64,000 nucleotides of DNA from Escherichia coli. Its GTDB lineage: Bacteria > Pseudomonadota > Gammaproteobacteria > Enterobacterales > Enterobacteriaceae. Both the position numbers and the translations under genes were made by a program. The stretch is taken from assembly GCF_003991155.1 (NCBI RefSeq), contig NZ_CP031293.1, one strand, 5' to 3'. The stretch's first letter is position 1. The number at the start of each line of letters is the position of its first letter. This document shows, one piece after another, positions 3,150 through 61,170 of the stretch. The notes under the pieces are model-generated. The model searched no databases and had not been told where the DNA came from. It saw nothing but the letters and a program-made list of their open reading frames with translations.

Positions 3150-3357
3150 GCGAGCAGGATTCCTGATTTTAAACGTGAACGCCGCAGGAAGAATCAACAG
3201 GCATAGAATGGCGTTGGGTGCTTGAGGCTGTCTGGCGTTAAGCATTCGCGAGGTTCCAGATGGACAAAAGCCCCAGGCGATATTTCTATCAACCTGAGGC
3301 CAGCGTTCGAACCTAAGCAATTCGGATGTTAGTCTCTTCTTTGCAGGGAGGCAAGAC

Positions 3358-3510
3358 ATGCTGACAAAATATGCCCTTGTGGCAATCATCGTACTGTGTT
3401 GTACAGTACTGGGATTCACGTTGATGGTAGGCGACTCGTTGTGTGAGTTGAGTATCAGAGAACGTGGTATGGAGTTTAAGGCAGTTCTCGCTTACGAATC
3501 GAAGAAGTAG
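3358..3510 (+). CDS. Hok/Gef-family type I toxin (50 aa, small membrane peptide)
   Basis: ORF below the 60-aa track cutoff, translated by hand: [50 protein letters not shown]; hydrophobic N-terminal helix plus SLCE and AYES motifs shared with Hok/Gef/RelF; GGGAGG Shine-Dalgarno 7 nt upstream. Confidence 0.8.
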
Positions 3511-10999: not shown

Positions 11000-12361
<1,362 letters not shown>

Positions 12362-12500
12362 AACGTGAGGAAATACCTGGATTTTTCCTGGTTATTTTGC
12401 CGCAGGTCAGCGTATCGTGAACATCTTTTCCAGTGTTCAGTATGGTGCCTTGCACGGTAATTATGTCACTGGTTATTAACCAATTTTTCCTGGGGGATAA

Positions 12501-13640
12501 ATGAGCGCGGGAAGCCCAAAATTCACCGTTCGCCGCATTGCGGCTTTGTCACTGGTTTCGCTATGGCTGGCAGGCTGTTCTGACACTTCAAATCCACCGG
12601 CCCCGGTCAGCTCCGTTAATGGCAATGCGCCTGCAAATACCAATTCTGGTATGTTGATTACGCCGCCGCCGAAAATGGGGACGACGTCTACAGCTCAGCA
12701 ACCGCAAATTCAGCCGGTACAGCAGCCACAAATTCAGGCCACTCAACAACCGCAAATCCAGCCGGTGCAGCCAGTAGCTCAGCAGCCGGTACAGATGGAA
12801 AACGGACGCATCGTCTATAACCGTCAGTATGGGAACATTCCGAAAGGCAGTTATAGCGGCAGTACCTATACAGTGAAAAAAGGCGACACACTTTTCTATA
12901 TCGCCTGGATTACTGGCAACGATTTCCGTGACCTTGCTCAGCGCAACAATATTCAGGCACCATACGCGCTGAACGTCGGTCAGACCTTACAGGTGGGGAA
13001 TGCTTCCGGTACGCCAATCACTGGCGGAAATGCCATTACCCAGGCCGACGCAGCAGAGCAAGGAGTTGTGATCAAGCCTGCACAAAATTCCACCGTTGCT
13101 GTTGCTTCGCAACCGACAATTACGTATTCTGAGTCTTCGGGTGAACAGAGTGCTAACAAAATGTTGCCGAACAACAAGCCAACTGCGACCACGGTCACAG
13201 CGCCTGTAACGGTACCAACAGCAAGCACAACCGAGCCGACTGTCAGCAGTACATCAACCAGTACGCCTATCTCCACCTGGCGCTGGCCGACTGAGGGCAA
13301 AGTGATCGAAACCTTTGGCGCTTCTGAGGGGGGCAACAAGGGGATTGATATCGCAGGCAGCAAAGGACAGGCAATTATCGCGACTGCAGATGGACGCGTT
13401 GTTTATGCCGGTAACGCGCTGCGCGGCTACGGTAATCTGATTATCATCAAACATAATGATGATTACCTGAGTGCCTACGCCCATAACGACACAATGCTGG
13501 TCCGGGAACAACAAGAAGTGAAGGCGGGGCAAAAAATAGCAACCATGGGTAGCACCGGAACCAGTTCAACACGCTTGCATTTTGAAATTCGTTACAAGGG
13601 GAAATCCGTAAACCCGCTGCGTTATTTGCCGCAGCGATAA
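12501..13640 (+). CDS. nlpD: murein hydrolase activator lipoprotein NlpD (LysM + M23 peptidase-like)
   Basis: 379-aa ORF; lipobox LAGC; Q/P-rich repeat region; C-terminal M23 domain. Confidence 0.93.
12706..12777 (+). repeat. three in-frame tandem 24-bp repeats inside nlpD encoding (QQPQIQPx)3
   Basis: cagcaaccgcaaattcagccggta / cagcagccacaaattcaggccact / caacaaccgcaaatccagccggtg. Confidence 0.8.
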
Positions 13641-13702
13641 ATCGGCGGAACCAGGCTTTTGCTTGAATGTTCCGTCAAGGGATCACGGGTAGGAGCCACC
13701 TT

Positions 13703-14695
13703 ATGAGTCAGAATACGCTGAAAGTTCATGATTTAAATGAAGATGCGGAATTTGATGAGAACGGAGTTGAGGTTTTTGACGAAAAGGCCTTAGTAGAAGA
13801 GGAACCCAGTGATAACGATTTGGCCGAAGAGGAACTGTTATCGCAGGGAGCCACACAGCGTGTGCTGGACGCGACTCAGCTTTACCTTGGTGAGATTGGT
13901 TATTCACCACTGTTAACGGCCGAAGAAGAAGTTTATTTTGCGCGTCGCGCACTGCGTGGAGATGTTGCCTCTCGCCGCCGGATGATCGAGAGTAACTTGC
14001 GTCTGGTGGTAAAAATTGCCCGCCGTTATGGCAATCGTGGTCTGGCGTTGCTGGATCTTATCGAAGAGGGCAACCTGGGGCTGATCCGCGCGGTAGAGAA
14101 GTTTGACCCGGAACGTGGTTTCCGCTTCTCAACATACGCAACCTGGTGGATTCGCCAGACGATCGAACGGGCGATTATGAACCAAACCCGTACTATTCGT
14201 TTGCCGATTCACATCGTAAAGGAGCTGAACGTTTACCTGCGAACCGCACGTGAGTTGTCCCATAAGCTGGACCACGAACCAAGTGCGGAAGAGATCGCAG
14301 AGCAACTGGATAAGCCAGTTGATGACGTCAGCCGTATGCTTCGTCTTAACGAGCGCATTACCTCGGTAGACACCCCGCTGGGTGGTGATTCCGAAAAAGC
14401 GTTGCTGGACATCCTGGCCGATGAAAAAGAGAATGGTCCGGAAGATACCACGCAAGATGACGATATGAAGCAGAGCATCGTCAAATGGCTGTTCGAGCTG
14501 AACGCCAAACAGCGTGAAGTACTGGCACGTCGATTCGGTTTGCTGGGGTACGAAGCGGCAACACTGGAAGATGTAGGTCGTGAAATTGGCCTCACCCGTG
14601 AACGTGTTCGCCAGATTCAGGTTGAAGGCCTGCGCCGTTTGCGCGAAATCCTGCAAACGCAGGGGCTGAATATCGAAGCGCTGTTCCGCGAGTAA
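13703..14695 (+). CDS. rpoS: RNA polymerase sigma factor RpoS (sigma-38)
   Basis: 330-aa ORF from [11 protein letters not shown]; ORF-track start at 13667 rejected; codon 33 is GAG (Glu). Confidence 0.95.
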
Positions 14696-14815: not shown

Positions 14816-15224
14816 CTATTTGCTCATCATCTTGCGCACCAGCTGCATAAACAGCTCCTGCTCTTCTGCACTCAAACGCCCCAAAAATTCCTCATCCACA
14901 CTGTCACCAATCGGTATCGCCGCAGCAAGTACCTTTTCTCCTTCGGCAGTCAGCCAGACAAAGCGTCGCCGCTTATCAGCAGAGTCATGTTCTCGTCTGA
15001 CTAAGCCACGATTTTCCATTCGTGCCAACATTTCTGCCAGCGTTGCTTTGGTGCTGACGGCTGCTTCTATCAGTGCCACCTGTTCGATACCAGGTTTATC
15101 AGCAATGGCGCGCATCACCGCGTACTGTGGTTTGGTCAGATCAGGTAACTCGTGCTGCCAGCGAGCCGTGTGCTGCTGAAAAAGCTGTCGTAACTGATGG
15201 AACGCTTTATTTCGTAACGCCATG
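14816..15224 (-). CDS. MarR/SlyA-family transcriptional regulator
   Basis: Winged-helix MarR-like sequence; ATG at 15224 has a GGAG Shine-Dalgarno, the longer 15256 start does not; divergent from the decarboxylase operon. Confidence 0.75.
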
Positions 15225-15369
15225 TAAACTCCGGGCAAACTATCTGCCGCTATCATAGCGGTTTTTCAGTGACGCAGGGGATGTTGTTACTTTTCAGTGC
15301 TTGCCGCGATGAGAACAGAGGCGTATTTTAATAATAACGTTCGTGTACGAACAATTAAGAGAATTAACA

Positions 15370-15963
15370 ATGAGACTGATCGTCGGGATGACAGGGGCCA
15401 CCGGAGCGCCTCTTGGTGTGGCATTACTGCAAGCGCTGCGGGAGATGCCGAATGTCGAGACTCATCTGGTGATGTCGAAGTGGGCGAAAACCACCATTGA
15501 ACTGGAAACGCCTTACAACGCCCGCGATGTTGCTGCCCTCGCAGACTTCTGCCATAACCCGGCGGATCAGGCCGCAACCATCTCCTCAGGTTCCTTTCGT
15601 ACCGACGGCATGATCGTTATTCCGTGCAGTATGAAAACGCTCGCCGGTATCCGTGCCGGTTACGCCGATGGCCTGGTGGGGCGCGCGGCGGACGTCGTGC
15701 TCAAAGAAGGCCGCAAACTGGTGCTGGTGCCGCGTGAAATGCCGCTTAGCACAATCCATCTCGAAAATATGCTCGCACTTTCGCGCATGGGCGTGGCGAT
15801 GGTGCCGCCGATGCCTGCCTTTTATAACCATCCCGAAACGGTAGATGACATTGTCCACCACGTGGTAGCCCGCGTGCTGGATCAATTTGGCCTCGAACAT
15901 CCTCACGCCAGGCGCTGGCAAGGATTGCCGCAGGCCCGGAATTTTTCTCAGGAGAATGAATAA
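15370..15963 (+). CDS. UbiX-family flavin prenyltransferase (decarboxylase subunit B-like)
   Basis: 197-aa ORF starting MRLIVGMTGATGA, typical UbiX/Pad1 N-terminus; first of three tightly linked genes. Confidence 0.8.
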   Translation: MRLIVGMTGATGAPLGVALLQALREMPNVETHLVMSKWAKTTIELETPYNARDVAALADFCHNPADQAATISSGSFRTDGMIVIPCSMKTLAGIRAGYADGLVGRAADVVLKEGRKLVLVPREMPLSTIHLENMLALSRMGVAMVPPMPAFYNHPETVDDIVHHVVARVLDQFGLEHPHARRWQGLPQARNFSQENE

Positions 15964-17390
15964 TGGCATTTGATGATTTACGCAGCTTTTTACAGGCGCT
16001 CGACGACCATGGGCAATTGCTGAAAATCAGCGAAGAGGTGAACGCGGAACCGGATCTGGCAGCAGCAGCTAACGCCACCGGGCGTATCGGCGACGGCGCG
16101 CCCGCGCTGTGGTTTGATAATATTCGCGGCTTTACCGATGCCCGCGTGGCAATGAACACCATCGGTTCCTGGCAGAACCACGCGATTTCCCTCGGCCTGC
16201 CGCCAAATACCCCGGTTAAAAAACAGATTGATGAGTTTATCCGCCGCTGGGATAACTTCCCGATTGCCCCGGAGCGCCGCGCCAATCCGGCCTGGGCGCA
16301 GAACACCGTTGATGGCGACGAGATCAACCTGTTCGATATCCTGCCGCTGTTTCGTTTAAACGATGGCGATGGCGGTTTCTATCTCGACAAAGCGTGCGTG
16401 GTTTCCCGCGATCCGCTTGATCCGGATAACTTCGGCAAGCAGAACGTCGGCATCTACCGTATGGAAGTGAAGGGTAAGCGTAAGCTCGGTCTGCAACCGG
16501 TGCCGATGCACGATATCGCCCTGCATCTGCATAAAGCGGAAGAGCGCGGTGAAGATCTGCCGATTGCCATCACCCTGGGTAACGACCCGATCATCACCCT
16601 GATGGGGGCCACGCCGCTGAAATACGATCAGTCCGAGTACGAAATGGCGGGCGCGCTGCGCGAAAGTCCGTACCCGATCGCCACCGCTCCGCTGACCGGT
16701 TTTGATGTGCCGTGGGGCTCGGAGGTGATCCTCGAAGGAGTCATCGAAAGCCGCAAACGCGAGATTGAAGGGCCATTCGGTGAGTTTACCGGCCACTACT
16801 CCGGCGGGCGCAATATGACCGTCGTGCGCATTGATAAAGTCTCTTATCGCAGCAAACCCATTTTTGAATCGCTCTATCTCGGGATGCCGTGGACGGAAAT
16901 CGACTACCTGATGGGGCCAGCCACCTGTGTGCCGCTGTATCAACAACTGAAAGCTGAGTTCCCGGAAGTGCAGGCGGTAAACGCCATGTACACCCACGGC
17001 CTGCTGGCGATTATCTCCACCAAAAAACGCTACGGTGGCTTTGCCCGCGCGGTGGGCCTCCGTGCGATGACCACGCCGCACGGTCTGGGCTACGTGAAGA
17101 TGGTGATTATGGTCGATGAAGACGTTGATCCGTTCAACCTGCCGCAGGTGATGTGGGCGCTCTCTTCGAAAGTGAACCCGGCAGGGGATTTGGTGCAGTT
17201 GCCGAATATGTCCGTGCTGGAACTCGACCCTGGCTCAAGTCCGGCGGGGATCACCGACAAGCTGATTATCGACGCCACCACGCCTGTCGCCCCGGACAAC
17301 CGTGGTCACTACAGTCAGCCGGTGGTGGATTTACCGGAAACCAAAGCCTGGGCTGAAAAACTGACCGCTATGCTGGCCGCACGTCAATAA
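15963..17390 (+). CDS. UbiD-family non-oxidative aromatic acid decarboxylase (subunit C-like)
   Basis: 475-aa ORF; start overlaps upstream stop; UbiD-like length and sequence. Confidence 0.8.
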   Translation: MAFDDLRSFLQALDDHGQLLKISEEVNAEPDLAAAANATGRIGDGAPALWFDNIRGFTDARVAMNTIGSWQNHAISLGLPPNTPVKKQIDEFIRRWDNFPIAPERRANPAWAQNTVDGDEINLFDILPLFRLNDGDGGFYLDKACVVSRDPLDPDNFGKQNVGIYRMEVKGKRKLGLQPVPMHDIALHLHKAEERGEDLPIAITLGNDPIITLMGATPLKYDQSEYEMAGALRESPYPIATAPLTGFDVPWGSEVILEGVIESRKREIEGPFGEFTGHYSGGRNMTVVRIDKVSYRSKPIFESLYLGMPWTEIDYLMGPATCVPLYQQLKAEFPEVQAVNAMYTHGLLAIISTKKRYGGFARAVGLRAMTTPHGLGYVKMVIMVDEDVDPFNLPQVMWALSSKVNPAGDLVQLPNMSVLELDPGSSPAGITDKLIIDATTPVAPDNRGHYSQPVVDLPETKAWAEKLTAMLAARQ

Positions 17391-17400
17391 GGAGAACAAG

Positions 17401-17637
17401 ATGATTTGTCCACGTTGTGCCGATGAACAGATTGAAGTGATGGCGAAATCGCCGGTAAAAGATGTCTGGACGGTATATCAGTGCCAGCATTGCCTTTATA
17501 CCTGGCGCGATACCGAACCGCTGCGCCGCACCAGCCGCGAACATTATCCCGAAGCGTTCCGCATGACGCAGAAAGATATTGATGACGCGCCGATGGTGCC
17601 GAGCATCCCGCCGCTGCTGGCGGAAGGTAAGTGTTAA
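17401..17637 (+). CDS. small decarboxylase subunit D-like protein with CxxC...CxxC motif
   Basis: 78-aa ORF MICPRCADEQ...CQHCLYTW, 10 bp downstream of the UbiD-like gene. Confidence 0.65.
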   Translation: MICPRCADEQIEVMAKSPVKDVWTVYQCQHCLYTWRDTEPLRRTSREHYPEAFRMTQKDIDDAPMVPSIPPLLAEGKC

Positions 17638-17646
17638 TAAAAAAGT

Positions 17647-17674
17647 GCCGGGTAGAGGCTTTGCTTTACCCGGC
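17647..17674. terminator. hairpin between convergent decarboxylase operon and pphB
   Basis: gccgggta...tacccggc 8-bp stem. Confidence 0.4.
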
Positions 17675-17678
17675 CACG

Positions 17679-18335
17679 TTATTTAATTTTATAAAACGAT
17701 AACCGTCTGCTTTCCGGCGAGCCGGTATCAATATAAACCTGATTGGCAAATGTCTGGATATTTATAAACATCATATGTCCAAAGATAAAACAGTCGGCAC
17801 CGTTTATTTCTTTTAACTCTCCCTTGAATGATTTCTGCACGCGATCAACAGGCCAGAGTAATTCGCTTTCTGCTATTTCTTTACCAAACTGATATTCATC
17901 ACCCGGATAATCTGCATGTGCGATGACATATTTTATGTTGTCGTTAGTGATTTCAATAATATGTGGAAGGTGATGGAATTTCAGCAACAGATCTATTGCC
18001 TCTTGTTGCTCTGAATCATTTAAATTGAAAAACCAGTCACCACCGCTGGCAAGCCACATATTTCCATCGCCAGTTTCGAATGCCTCAAGCGCCATCGCTT
18101 CGTGGTTGCCTTTAGCCGATGTAAACCAGGGCTGGTTTAGCAGGCGCAGCACGTTAAGACTCTCCGGCCCACGATCAATATTATCGCCGACAGAAATAAG
18201 TAAGTCGGTTTCAGGGCAAAAAGAGAGTTGATGTAAGCGGGATTGTAATAATTGATAGTCACCATGAATATCACCAACGGCCCATATATGGCGATAGTGA
18301 TGGGCATTGATTTTTTGATAGCGTGTAGATGGCAT
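17679..18335 (-). CDS. pphB: serine/threonine protein phosphatase 2
   Basis: 218-aa ORF with metallophosphatase motifs GDIHGD, GDNIDRG, GNHE. Confidence 0.9.
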   Translation of the reverse strand: MPSTRYQKINAHHYRHIWAVGDIHGDYQLLQSRLHQLSFCPETDLLISVGDNIDRGPESLNVLRLLNQPWFTSAKGNHEAMALEAFETGDGNMWLASGGDWFFNLNDSEQQEAIDLLLKFHHLPHIIEITNDNIKYVIAHADYPGDEYQFGKEIAESELLWPVDRVQKSFKGELKEINGADCFIFGHMMFINIQTFANQVYIDTGSPESRRLSFYKIK

Positions 18336-18440
18336 GGTTTTACCCTGTAAAATAAGATTTCCTATTATACAGGGTATTTTTATTTGATTCGTCAGTTGTC
18401 GTTAATATTCCCGATAGCAAAAGACTATCGGGAATTGTTA

Positions 18441-21002
18441 TTACACCAGACTCTTCAAGCGATAAATCCACTCCAGCGCCTGACGCGGAGTCAGTGAATC
18501 CGGGTCGAGGTTTTCCAGTGCCTCGACCGCAGGCGAAGTTTCTTCCGGTAGGGACAGCAAAGACATTTGTGTACCATCCACTTGCGTAGCAGCGGCGTTC
18601 GGCGAAATGCTTTCCAGCTCACGCAGTTTTTGCCGTGCGCGCTTAATAACCTCTTTTGGCACGCCCGCCAGAGCAGCAACCGCCAGGCCGTAGCTTTTGC
18701 TCGCCGCGCCATCCTGCACGCTGTGCATAAAGGCAATGGTGTCGCCGTGCTCCAGCGCATCGAGATGCACGTTGGCGACGCCTTCCATTTTCTCCGGCAG
18801 TTGGGTCAGCTCGAAATAGTGGGTAGCAAACAGCGTCAACGCTTTGATCTTATTTGCCAGATTTTCCGCGCATGCCCACGCCAGCGACAGACCATCGTAA
18901 GTGGAAGTTCCGCGCCCAATCTCATCCATCAGCACCAGACTGTACTCGGTGGCGTTATGTAAAATATTGGCGGTTTCGGTCATCTCCACCATAAAGGTTG
19001 AACGCCCGGATGCCAGATCGTCTGCCGCGCCTACGCGGGTAAAGATACGGTCGATCGGGCCAATCTCGACTTTTTGCGCCGGTACGTAGCTGCCGATATA
19101 CGCCATCAGCGCAATCAACGCGGTCTGGCGCATATAGGTACTTTTACCGCCCATGTTCGGACCGGTAATGATCAACATGCGGCGCTGCGGCGACAGGTTC
19201 AGCGGGTTAGCGATAAACGGCTCATTCAGTACTTGTTCAACTACCGGATGGCGACCTTCGGTAATGCGAATACCCGGTTTATCAATAAAGGTCGGGCAGG
19301 TGTAGTTCAGGGTATAGGCCCGTTCCGCCAGGTTCACCAGCACGTCGAGTTCCGCCAGCGCGCTCGCGCTCTGTTGCAACGCTTCCAGATGCGGCAACAG
19401 CAGGTCGAACAGCTCTTCATAAAGTTGTTTTTCCAGAGCCAGTGCTTTGCCTTTTGAGGTGAGAACTTTATCTTCGTACTCTTTCAGCTCCGGAATAATG
19501 TAACGCTCGGCGTTTTTCAGCGTCTGGCGGCGCATGTAGTTAATCGGTGCCAGATGGCTTTGCCCACGGCTGATCTGAATGTAGTAGCCGTGCACTGCAT
19601 TAAAGCCAACTTTCAGCGTGTCCAGGCCGGTACGTTCACGCTCGCGGACCTCCAGACGCTCCAGATAATCGGTCGCACCGTCAGCCAGCGCGCGCCACTC
19701 ATCCAGCTCTTCGTTATAGCCCGATGCGATAACACCACCGTCGCGTACCAGCACCGGTGGTGTGTCGATGATTGCTCGCTCCAGCAGATCGCGCAGCTCG
19801 GCAAACTCGCCCATCTTCTCACGCAGCGCTTGTACCGGTGCACTATCGACATTTTCTAACTGCGCACGCAACTCCGGCAGTTGCTGGAAAGCGTGGCGCA
19901 TACGGGCCAGATCGCGCGGGCGAGCAGTACGTAACGCCAGACGCGCCAGAATACGTTCCAGGTCGCCCACCTGACGCAGCACAGGCTGTATCTCGGCGGT
20001 GAAATCCTGCAATGCGCCAATAGTTTGCTGGCGCTCAAGCAACACGCGGGTATCGCGCACTGGCATATGCAGCCAGCGTTTCAGCATACGACTACCCATC
20101 GGCGTTACAGTGCAGTCGAGCACTGAAGCCAGCGTGTTTTCCGCACCGCCCGCCAGGTTCTGAGTAATTTCCAGGTTACGACGCGTCGCGGCATCCATAA
20201 TGATGCTGTCCTGCTCACGTTCCATGGTGATAGAACGAATATGCGGCAGGGTCGTGCGTTGGGTATCTTTCGCATACTGCAACAGACAACCGGCAGCACA
20301 AAGTCCGCGCGGCGCGTTCTCGACGCCAAAACCGACCAGATCGCGGGTGCCAAATTGCAGATTCAACTGCTGGCGCGCAGTGTCGATTTCAAACTCCCAC
20401 AGCGGACGACGACGCAGGCCGCGACGACCTTCAATCAGCGACATCTCGGCGAAATCTTCTGCATACAACAGCTCTGCCGGGTTGGTACGTTGCAGCTCTG
20501 CAGCCATCGTTTCGCGGTCCGCCGGTTCGCTAAGGCGAAAACGCCCGGAGCTGATATCCAACGTCGCGTAGCCGAACCCTTTGCTGTCCTGCCAGATAGC
20601 TGCCAGCAGGTTATCCTGACGCTCCTGCAACAGCGCTTCATCGCTGATGGTGCCCGGCGTAACGATACGGACAACTTTGCGCTCGACCGGCCCTTTGCTG
20701 GTCGCCGGATCGCCAATTTGTTCGCAGATGGCAACGGACTCGCCCTGATTCACCAGTTTGGCGAGATAGTTTTCCACCGCATGGTAGGGGATCCCCGCCA
20801 TCGGGATCGGCTCTCCCGCGGAAGCACCGCGTTTGGTCAGTGAAATATCCAGCAGCTGCGAGGCGCGTTTCGCGTCGTCATAAAACAGTTCGTAAAAGTC
20901 ACCCATCCGATAGAACAGCAGGATCTCGGGATGCTGGGCTTTCAGCTTGAGATACTGCTGCATCATTGGCGTATGGGCATCAAAATTTTCTATTGCACTC
21001 AT
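18441..21002 (-). CDS. mutS: DNA mismatch repair protein MutS
   Basis: 853-aa ORF; Walker [10 protein letters not shown]; recognised MutS sequence. Confidence 0.97.
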
Positions 21003-60578: not shown

Positions 60579-60671
60579 GGTGAGGTGGCCGAGAGGCTGA
60601 AGGCGCTCCCCTGCTAAGGGAGTATGCGGTCAAAAGCTGCATCCGGGGTTCGAATCCCCGCCTCACCGCCA
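60579..60671 (+). tRNA. serV: tRNA-Ser (anticodon GCU)
   Basis: 93-nt cloverleaf with long variable arm; GGTGAGG...CCTCACCGCCA; anticodon loop CTGCTAA. Confidence 0.93.
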
Positions 60672-60674
60672 TTT

Positions 60675-60751
60675 GCATCCGTAGCTCAGCTGGATAGAGT
60701 ACTCGGCTACGAACCGAGCGGTCGGAGGTTCGAATCCTCCCGGATGCACCA
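60675..60751 (+). tRNA. argV: tRNA-Arg (anticodon ACG), copy 1
   Basis: 77-nt GCATCCGTAGCTCAGCTGGATAGAG...CGGATGCACCA; anticodon loop CTACGAA; copy-to-gene-name assignment is tentative. Confidence 0.93.
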
Positions 60752-60815
60752 TCTCTTACTTGATACGGCTTTAGTGGCGGTATCAAAAAATCTGCAGTAA
60801 AGTAAGTTTCCCGAT

Positions 60816-60892
60816 GCATCCGTAGCTCAGCTGGATAGAGTACTCGGCTACGAACCGAGCGGTCGGAGGTTCGAATCCTCCCGGATGCACCA
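60816..60892 (+). tRNA. argY: tRNA-Arg (anticodon ACG), copy 2
   Basis: Identical 77-nt sequence; name assignment tentative. Confidence 0.93.
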
Positions 60893-60954
60893 TCTCTTAC
60901 TTGATATGGCTTTAGTAGCGGTATCAATATCAGCAGTAAAATAAATTTCCCGAT

Positions 60955-61031
60955 GCATCCGTAGCTCAGCTGGATAGAGTACTCGGCTACGAACCGAGCG
61001 GTCGGAGGTTCGAATCCTCCCGGATGCACCA
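60955..61031 (+). tRNA. argZ: tRNA-Arg (anticodon ACG), copy 3
   Basis: Identical 77-nt sequence; name assignment tentative. Confidence 0.93.
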
Positions 61032-61093
61032 TCTCTTACTTGATATGGCTTTAGTAGCGGTATCAATATCAGCAGTAAAATAAATTTCCCGAT

Positions 61094-61170
61094 GCATCCG
61101 TAGCTCAGCTGGATAGAGTACTCGGCTACGAACCGAGCGGTCGGAGGTTCGAATCCTCCCGGATGCACCA
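61094..61170 (+). tRNA. argQ: tRNA-Arg (anticodon ACG), copy 4
   Basis: Identical 77-nt sequence; name assignment tentative. Confidence 0.93.

Follow-up and report, generated by a model that had tools for sequence, protein, structure and literature searches.

An Imperfect In-Frame Minisatellite in the N-Terminal Tether of Escherichia coli NlpD and Its Copy-Number Variation

The nlpD Locus

In the window, by which we mean the whole 64,000-nucleotide stretch of Escherichia coli DNA analysed here, surE is followed by pcm, nlpD and rpoS, the usual conserved order, as judged from the open reading frames and from RefSeq annotation at matching loci. The nlpD coding sequence occupies positions 12501..13640 on the plus strand and encodes 379 amino acids when read from the ATG at 12501 (ORF list, NCBIfam and Pfam); the RefSeq/PGAP start is the in-frame TTG at 12546, which gives a protein of 364 residues. 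A first-pass annotation, made from the sequence alone, had named the gene nlpD, and this identity is borne out by the NCBIfam equivalog NF008123, which matches residues 4-379 with 679 bits, above its curated cut-off of 311.

The predicted protein has the architecture expected of NlpD, namely a signal peptide with a lipobox followed by a LysM domain and then a C-terminal LytM/M23 domain. The lipobox, L-A-G-C at residues 23-26 (12567..12578, plus strand, read from the translation), places Cys26 as the first, lipid-anchored residue of the mature protein; A24, G25 and C26 are unchanged across 21 homologues, and lipidation of Cys26 is inferred from the lipobox consensus together with the literature (bioRxiv 10.1101/2021.01.05.425367). 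The LysM peptidoglycan-binding domain spans residues 123-165 (12867..12995, plus strand; Pfam PF01476, E 2.7e-12) and is the first folded domain past the tether. The Pfam Peptidase_M23 match covers residues 279-372, with NKGIDIAG and RLHFE at the active-site motif positions, where catalytic M23 enzymes carry HxxxD and HxH. NlpD has been described as an outer-membrane lipoprotein and LytM-type activator of the septal amidase AmiC (bioRxiv 10.1101/2021.01.05.425367).

Anatomy of the Repeat

The stretch from the lipobox Cys26 to the start of the LysM domain at residue 123 is Q/P/V-rich and serves as the N-terminal linker or tether. The repeat, at residues 66-89, lies within this linker, to which the first-pass annotation had already assigned it. 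Three 24-bp units follow one another in frame on the plus strand: unit 1 at 12696..12719 (CAGCAACCGCAAATTCAGCCGGTA, encoding QQPQIQPV), the divergent middle unit 2 at 12720..12743 (CAGCAGCCACAAATTCAGGCCACT, QQPQIQAT) and unit 3 at 12744..12767 (CAACAACCGCAAATCCAGCCGGTG, again QQPQIQPV). A degenerate tail at 12768..12794 (plus strand), which reads QPV-AQQPV-Q (QPVAQQPVQ), forms with the end of unit 3 a 9-bp QPV sub-repeat of the form CAGCCxGTx, one copy of which has been gained or lost in some strains. The reading of three in-frame units encoding QQPQIQxx octapeptides, taken directly from the open reading frame, thus agrees with the earlier description, although the interval given for it, 12706-12777, is the same array taken 10 nt out of register: position 12706 is codon position 2 of Gln69, and the third “unit” so delimited overlaps the tail, the in-frame units being those at 12696-12767.

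The units are far from identical, units 1 and 3 agreeing at 21/24 positions, units 1 and 2 at 17/24 and units 2 and 3 at 15/24 (62-88%), and the longest exact repeats inside the array are 11-12 nt. From the exact-repeat list, the 11-nt direct repeat CAACCGCAAAT lies at 12699..12709 in unit 1 and at 12747..12757 in unit 3 (both plus strand, a lag of 48), and the 12-nt repeat CAGCCGGTACAG lies at 12711..12722 with a second copy at 12783-12794 (plus strand, a lag of 72); a 9-nt exact repeat, CAAATTCAG, is present at 24-bp spacing. Tandem Repeats Finder (TRF) reports the array at 12695-12771 with a period of 24, 3.2 copies, 71% matches and a score of 85, which ranks it second among the tandem repeats of the window, behind an array of tRNA-Arg genes. 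The array is, in short, an imperfect in-frame minisatellite of 3 x 24 bp with a degenerate tail that bears a 9-bp sub-repeat.

It was also considered whether the periodicity could arise by chance in a segment of low complexity, and codon shuffling rules this out. None of 500 shuffles of the codons of the whole gene reached a TRF score of 85 (maximum 50), nor did any of 500 shuffles of the linker codons (maximum 61) or of 500 confined to codons 65-99 (maximum 82), so that 0/1500 shuffles attain the observed score. The lag-24 matches within the array, 32/48, correspond to a binomial P of 1.7e-9.

Copy Number among Escherichia Genomes

Copy number was surveyed in 5,426 complete E. coli genomes, a non-random sample that includes many O157:H7 strains. 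The nlpD locus was found in 5,420/5,426 of these, once or twice in each, always on the chromosome and always annotated as nlpD. Since the identity bands obtained with the native query cannot separate alleles that differ in length, the census relied on a probe for unit 2 and on synthetic alleles searched with strict E-value cut-offs, set such that only single-piece, full-length matches to the synthetic allele pass. The unit-2 probe, 52 nt long and centred on that unit, was found in 5,355/5,426 genomes, and 65 genomes have the locus and lack the probe.

The comparison across E. coli proposed by the first-pass annotation shows that copy number is not invariant, and it shows as well that one allele dominates. 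Approximately 5,354/5,420 genomes (~98.6%) carry three copies, a figure that includes 11 with a 9-bp change. A one-copy allele (-48 bp), detected with a synthetic one-copy query, is present in 61/5,420 genomes (1.1%), and a five-copy allele (+48 bp) was found in exactly one genome, PapRG-04-4. Synthetic two- and four-copy queries gave zero full-length, high-identity matches among the complete E. coli genomes; what these queries did surface were the +48-bp allele of PapRG-04-4 and variants of -9 bp and +9 bp, all three of which were read directly. When the real 9-bp alleles of the QPV sub-repeat were used as queries, the -9-bp form was found in 7 genomes and the +9-bp form in 4. In four genomes the locus is present, the unit-2 probe is absent and the genome is not one of the 61; one of these is RM9387, whose nlpD allele is ~10% divergent, resembles that of E. 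fergusonii and keeps all 3 units. Calculated from the census counts, the variants together amount to ~1.3% of the 5,420 genomes, and the allele diversity is ~0.03.

Outside the census, one-copy proteins were found in Shigella dysenteriae, S. flexneri, S. boydii and further E. coli, and the one-copy allele lies on dozens of Shigella contigs. A +72-bp duplication was found in one E. coli assembly (GCA_044690665.1), and an allele of seven units in one Escherichia-like assembly that is ~6% divergent (GCA_026283405.1); the seven-unit type is absent from the complete E. coli genomes searched. Every length change seen, whether -48, +48, +72 or +/-9 bp, is a multiple of 3 and leaves the nlpD reading frame intact, and the in-frame character of all of them means that there is no on/off switching at this repeat.

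Repeat Junctions and the Origin of Length Changes

The sequences of the variant alleles retain traces of where the exchanges took place. In TW14359, AMSHJX01, ECCWS199, PK8566, 2015C-4498, P276M and the Shigella contigs, the single remaining unit is a hybrid that joins the 5′ CAG of unit 1 to the 3′ ATC CAG CCA GTx of unit 3, which places the crossover within the 11-nt repeat CAACCGCAAAT at its 48-bp spacing. PEC145 represents a second type of junction, as its one-copy allele retains the whole of unit 1, so that the crossover there lies in the 7-nt GTGCAGC, likewise at 48-bp spacing. The five-copy allele bears the reciprocal hybrid unit, CAA...ATT CAG CCG GTG, and CAACCGCAAAT is accordingly the crossover site for most of the 48-bp deletions and for the 48-bp duplication. 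The junction of the +72-bp duplication matches the 12-nt CAGCCGGTACAG at 72-bp spacing, and the +/-9-bp alleles occur on haplotypes in which the 9-bp CAGCCAGTA is perfectly repeated. All of the length variants observed can therefore be assigned to exact direct repeats that are among the longest in the array.

These junctions suggest that the length changes would arise by slipped-strand mispairing at replication or by unequal exchange between exact repeats, a mechanism that we infer from the allele sequences. The first-pass annotation had called the repeat prone to slippage, a view that fits the placement of the junctions at short exact repeats but is overstated for an imperfect array of which ~98.6% of genomes share the three-copy form.

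The changes of whole units seen in the complete genomes proceed in steps of two, which is consistent with the 11-nt repeat being common to units 1 and 3. It is plausible that slippage depends on similarity, such that the middle unit, with only 15-17/24 positions in common with its neighbours, would be too divergent to pair with them, and only odd copy numbers would result. Against this explanation stands the 9-nt repeat at 24-bp spacing described above, in spite of which zero +/-24-bp alleles were found. Selection against two or four copies is a possible alternative for the odd-only pattern.

Recurrence of the One-Copy Allele and Its Value as a Marker

Whether the 61 one-copy genomes descend from a single deletion can be judged from the flanking haplotypes, which were compared over 2,275 ungapped sites from pcm to rpoS. 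TW14359, with one copy, has 0 flanking differences from the three-copy strain O157 180-PT54, and the same is true of one-copy AMSHJX01 against 2014C-3061 (three copies, -9 bp) and of one-copy PK8566 against 13P460A (three copies, +9 bp). ECCWS199 and P276M, both with one copy, differ from three-copy CFSAN051542 at 1 flanking site, and PEC145 (one copy) differs from K-12 (three copies) at 3. By this comparison, the one-copy allele arose through at least five independent deletions among the 7 one-copy genomes sampled, and such repeated origins on different haplotypes make the allele homoplasic.

At least 11 of the 61 one-copy records are named O157:H7 strains, including TW14359, EC4115, SS17, SS52 and JEONG-1266, and other O157 genomes, such as 180-PT54, have three copies. 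TW14359 has been termed a clade 8 outbreak strain (PMC8779985). The repeat does therefore split some sub-lineages, which upholds in part the earlier suggestion that it could serve as a strain marker; its discrimination is nonetheless very low. Given an allele diversity of ~0.03 and the homoplasy of the one-copy form, copy number at nlpD is a weak strain marker, and those who would use it for typing should be warned that it is poor and homoplasic even though some O157:H7 sub-lineages are separated by it.

Constraint, Ancestry and Role of the Segment

Comparison of the three QQPQIQ cores between K-12 and RM9387 reveals 9 synonymous and 0 non-synonymous differences. The same holds between units of one allele, for which the synonymous and non-synonymous differences number 8 and 0 in the window, 13 and 0 in RM9387, and 60 and 0 in the seven-copy allele, at codons where only 17% of random single-base changes would be expected to be synonymous. 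The final two residues of the units, on the other hand, are variable, with PV, AT, SV, SA, PI and PM all represented. Core differences that are without exception synonymous imply a constraint on the peptide and not on the DNA, and on these counts the QQPQIQ core is evidently subject to protein-level purifying selection.

The motif PQIQPV is present as a single copy in Citrobacter, Salmonella, Phytobacter, Enterobacter, Kosakonia and related genera, where it sits in a variable Q/P/V-rich stretch of ~15 to 65 residues. A single PQIQPV in other genera implies that the Escherichia triplet arose by multiplication of a pre-existing motif, and the phyletic distribution clearly points to the array being an Escherichia-lineage amplification of PQIQPV. 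The one-copy allele resembles the arrangement in C. freundii.

As to what the segment does, the best-supported reading is that of a flexible, near-neutral spacer. The segment would act mainly as an extended connection through which the LysM and LytM domains of the outer-membrane-anchored protein gain access to septal peptidoglycan, it would belong to the disordered N-terminal linker required for Lol-dependent sorting, and its exact length would be close to neutral. Structural information adds little here: no solved structure covers NlpD residues 1-234, and an AlphaFold2 model built on a 21-sequence alignment has a mean pLDDT of 32 over its whole length, the M23 domain included, and is uninformative on disorder. 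What speaks against a pure spacer is that QQPQIQ is conserved more strictly than a spacer needs. Taken as a whole, we consider it probable that the repeat is a minisatellite in the NlpD tether, derived by amplification of PQIQPV, with a constrained core, with length changes at direct repeats and with a near-neutral spacer role.

Competing Interpretations

Given the strict conservation of the core, QPQIQPV might be a functional short linear motif, such as one at which a partner in the periplasm or outer membrane docks to control NlpD, with copy number tuning the interaction; the one-copy alleles of O157:H7 sub-lineages and Shigella would then be adaptive and not neutral. Core differences that are only synonymous, both between units and between Escherichia lineages, the retention of PQIQPV in many genera within an otherwise variable segment, and the persistence in successful lineages of an allele that arose at least five times are all in keeping with such a motif. 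However, a mutational hot spot alone would yield the same recurrence, and the existence of one-, five- and seven-copy forms beside three copies in ~98.6% of genomes argues against strict dosage. The NlpD of Yersinia, moreover, is without the P/Q-rich region and yet works in cell separation (PMC2736372), and on balance we regard docking as unlikely. A more elaborate version, in which a putative QPQIQPV motif binds an envelope partner controlling amidase activation, was tripled in Escherichia and has had its collapse to one copy favoured by selection, strikes us as a long shot. If it were true, selection on the control of cell separation, and not neutral slippage, would account for the recurrent collapse seen in O157:H7 sub-lineages, in Shigella and in scattered commensals. 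To our knowledge, no partner of the QPQIQPV motif has been described.

The near-neutral spacer can also be set against a view of the repeat as a contingency or VNTR locus that is hypermutable, varies rapidly and reversibly and would be useful in typing. Its units do lie head to tail, its copy number is polymorphic among strains (1, 3 and 5), 9-bp variants occur in both directions, and deletions as well as duplications were found. This view is nevertheless very doubtful, given the divergence of the units and the shortness of the longest exact repeats, and since high diversity with low homoplasy is not what the census shows: variants make up ~1.3% of 5,420 genomes with a diversity of ~0.03, as against a reported 0.49-0.73 for O157 MLVA loci (PMC3768571), and 234 isolates surveyed for tolA had 8 to 16 copies of its repeat (PMC3477136). 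Nor is there an on/off switch by frameshift or promoter spacing, as a contingency (phase-variable) locus would have. A function at the level of DNA or RNA, such as a regulatory element for rpoS or an antisense product, with the peptide repeat incidental, draws on the fact that nlpD and rpoS form an operon, with the main promoter of rpoS located within nlpD (PMC3391293), but the synonymous differences that keep the peptide speak for constraint on the protein and not on the nucleotides and make such a function scarcely credible. A promoter scan returned zero promoter-like sites in 12300-13800, an Rfam scan zero families over the nlpD region, and no open reading frame of 80 or more amino acids overlies the repeat in other frames; strains without 48 bp of the array are, furthermore, common and viable. 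The rpoS promoter sits near 13136, ~567 nt ahead of rpoS and ~370 nt downstream of the array. Finally, the variants might be artefacts of assembly or sequencing, a suspicion that attaches most readily to the five-copy allele of PapRG-04-4, the +72-bp allele of GCA_044690665.1 and the seven-copy allele of GCA_026283405.1, each known from a single assembly. As a general explanation, this is highly improbable, because the one-copy allele occurs in 61 independently finished genomes, among them several separately sequenced O157:H7 strains, and also on dozens of Shigella contigs, and because 72 bp is far below the length of a sequencing read, so that collapse of the array is unlikely.

Comparison with Known Systems

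The repeat itself is not new and has been known since 1994, when nlpD was described by Ichikawa et al. in a report whose title, as cited in later work (PMC2736372), names a P/Q-rich repeat; gene, N-terminal P/Q-rich repeat and placement ahead of LysM all agree, and this is the feature that the first-pass annotation had picked out. The P/Q-rich region was later noted as present in the NlpD of E. coli and Salmonella and absent from that of Yersinia (Tidhar et al. 2009, PMC2736372). In the literature searched, with the content of the 1994 paper excepted, we found nothing specific on a 48-bp nlpD polymorphism, on nlpD as a VNTR or on a link to O157 clades. As a textbook type of low-complexity tether feature in a well-studied gene, the repeat matters little; what is added here is a census and a mechanism, that is, a near-monomorphic locus, steps of 48 bp at an 11-nt repeat, and a one-copy allele that recurs.

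Length variation in this part of the gene has a precedent in Salmonella. The nlpD of S. Typhimurium UK-1 carries a 12-bp in-frame deletion that its authors judged to lie outside the rpoS promoter (PMC3391293). It is likewise an in-frame indel in an orthologue, and the 12 bp that were lost (reverse complement CGCCGCAACAAG) agree with the QQTPQQAP portion of the P/Q-rich part of Salmonella NlpD. The unit is a different one, however, as is the species, and Salmonella NlpD does not have the QQPQIQxx triplet.

A likeness in kind is offered by tolA (Zhou, Michiels & Aertsen 2012, PMC3477136), where an imperfect in-frame tandem repeat also lies in the extended connecting segment of an envelope protein and also differs in copy number from strain to strain through slippage or recombination. 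The two differ in scale, since the tolA array comprises 13 units, each of 15-18 bp, and shows a broad range of copy numbers and measured phenotypic effects (PMC3477136), whereas nlpD has 3 units, a single allele in ~98.6% of genomes and, in copy number, steps of two units only. The natural one-, three-, five- and seven-copy alleles offer material for studying how tether length and the QPQIQPV motif affect the sorting of NlpD and the activation of AmiC. We know of no phenotype for a change in nlpD copy number.

Functional context comes from El Rayes et al. (bioRxiv 10.1101/2021.01.05.425367), who classed the N-terminus of NlpD as a disordered linker and included the protein as one of three lipoproteins tested. 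When residues 29-64 of NlpD are deleted, ~60% of the protein stays in the inner membrane and the chaining of an envC nlpD mutant is not rescued, and deletion of lpp restores the sorting of the linker-deleted protein (bioRxiv 10.1101/2021.01.05.425367). The repeat belongs to this same tether, which runs from the Lol sorting signal to the first folded domain, and the deletion of residues 29-64 ends just one residue before the repeat region at 65-99.

Start sites and length variation in nlpD

Current RefSeq/PGAP records place the start of nlpD at an in-frame TTG (12546) rather than at the upstream ATG (12501), which yields a protein of 364 aa in place of the 379-aa long form, in which this TTG is Leu16; each allele is therefore represented in protein databases by two length series. 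A further database protein, P0030 (340 aa), is an NlpD variant that does without 39 residues of the Thr/Ser/Pro-rich linker (…AVAS|TTEPTV…), the second linker of the protein, which runs from LysM to the M23 domain. In-frame length variation thus also occurs in the other linker of NlpD.

A divergent locus and the region downstream of rpoS

At the locus of strain RM9387 (NZ_CP009104.1), which is labelled E. coli, about 220 of the 2,275 ungapped sites compared across pcm-nlpD-rpoS are unlike those of other E. coli, and the NlpD N-terminus is identical to that of E. fergusonii NlpD (P0010). Because of these differences and this identity, the sequences point either to an imported segment or to a genome from a mislabelled or divergent lineage.

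In the rpoS-mutS interval (14816-21002), ORFs and domain matches comprise a MarR-family ORF on the minus strand, a Flavoprotein/UbiX-like ORF, one for a UbiD-like decarboxylase and one with Metallophos; next comes mutS, also on the minus strand (18441-21002). The MarR, Flavoprotein and UbiD genes also lie downstream of rpoS, in the same order, in L005, an Escherichia-like assembly about 6% divergent. Among the database proteins, P0087 (403 aa) combines the N-terminal part of NlpD with Sigma70_r4, and P0045 (560 aa) and P0092 (550 aa) have UbiD domains joined to that same part; all three look like natural deletions joining nlpD to rpoS or to the next gene beyond, that is, rpoS-loss alleles.

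RNA genes in the window

On the plus strand, 3216-3373 scores 110 bits with the Rfam model for the sok antitoxin RNA (RF01794; gathering score 59), and this suggests a chromosomal hok/sok-type toxin-antitoxin locus at this position. At the other end, 60579-61170 on the plus strand holds tRNA-Ser(gct) and, after it, tRNA-Arg(acg) in four identical copies. The tRNA-Arg copies are spaced about 139 nt apart, and their array is the top tandem repeat of the 64-kb window (TRF score 936). The whole tRNA-Ser/tRNA-Arg array looks like the serV-argVYZQ cluster.
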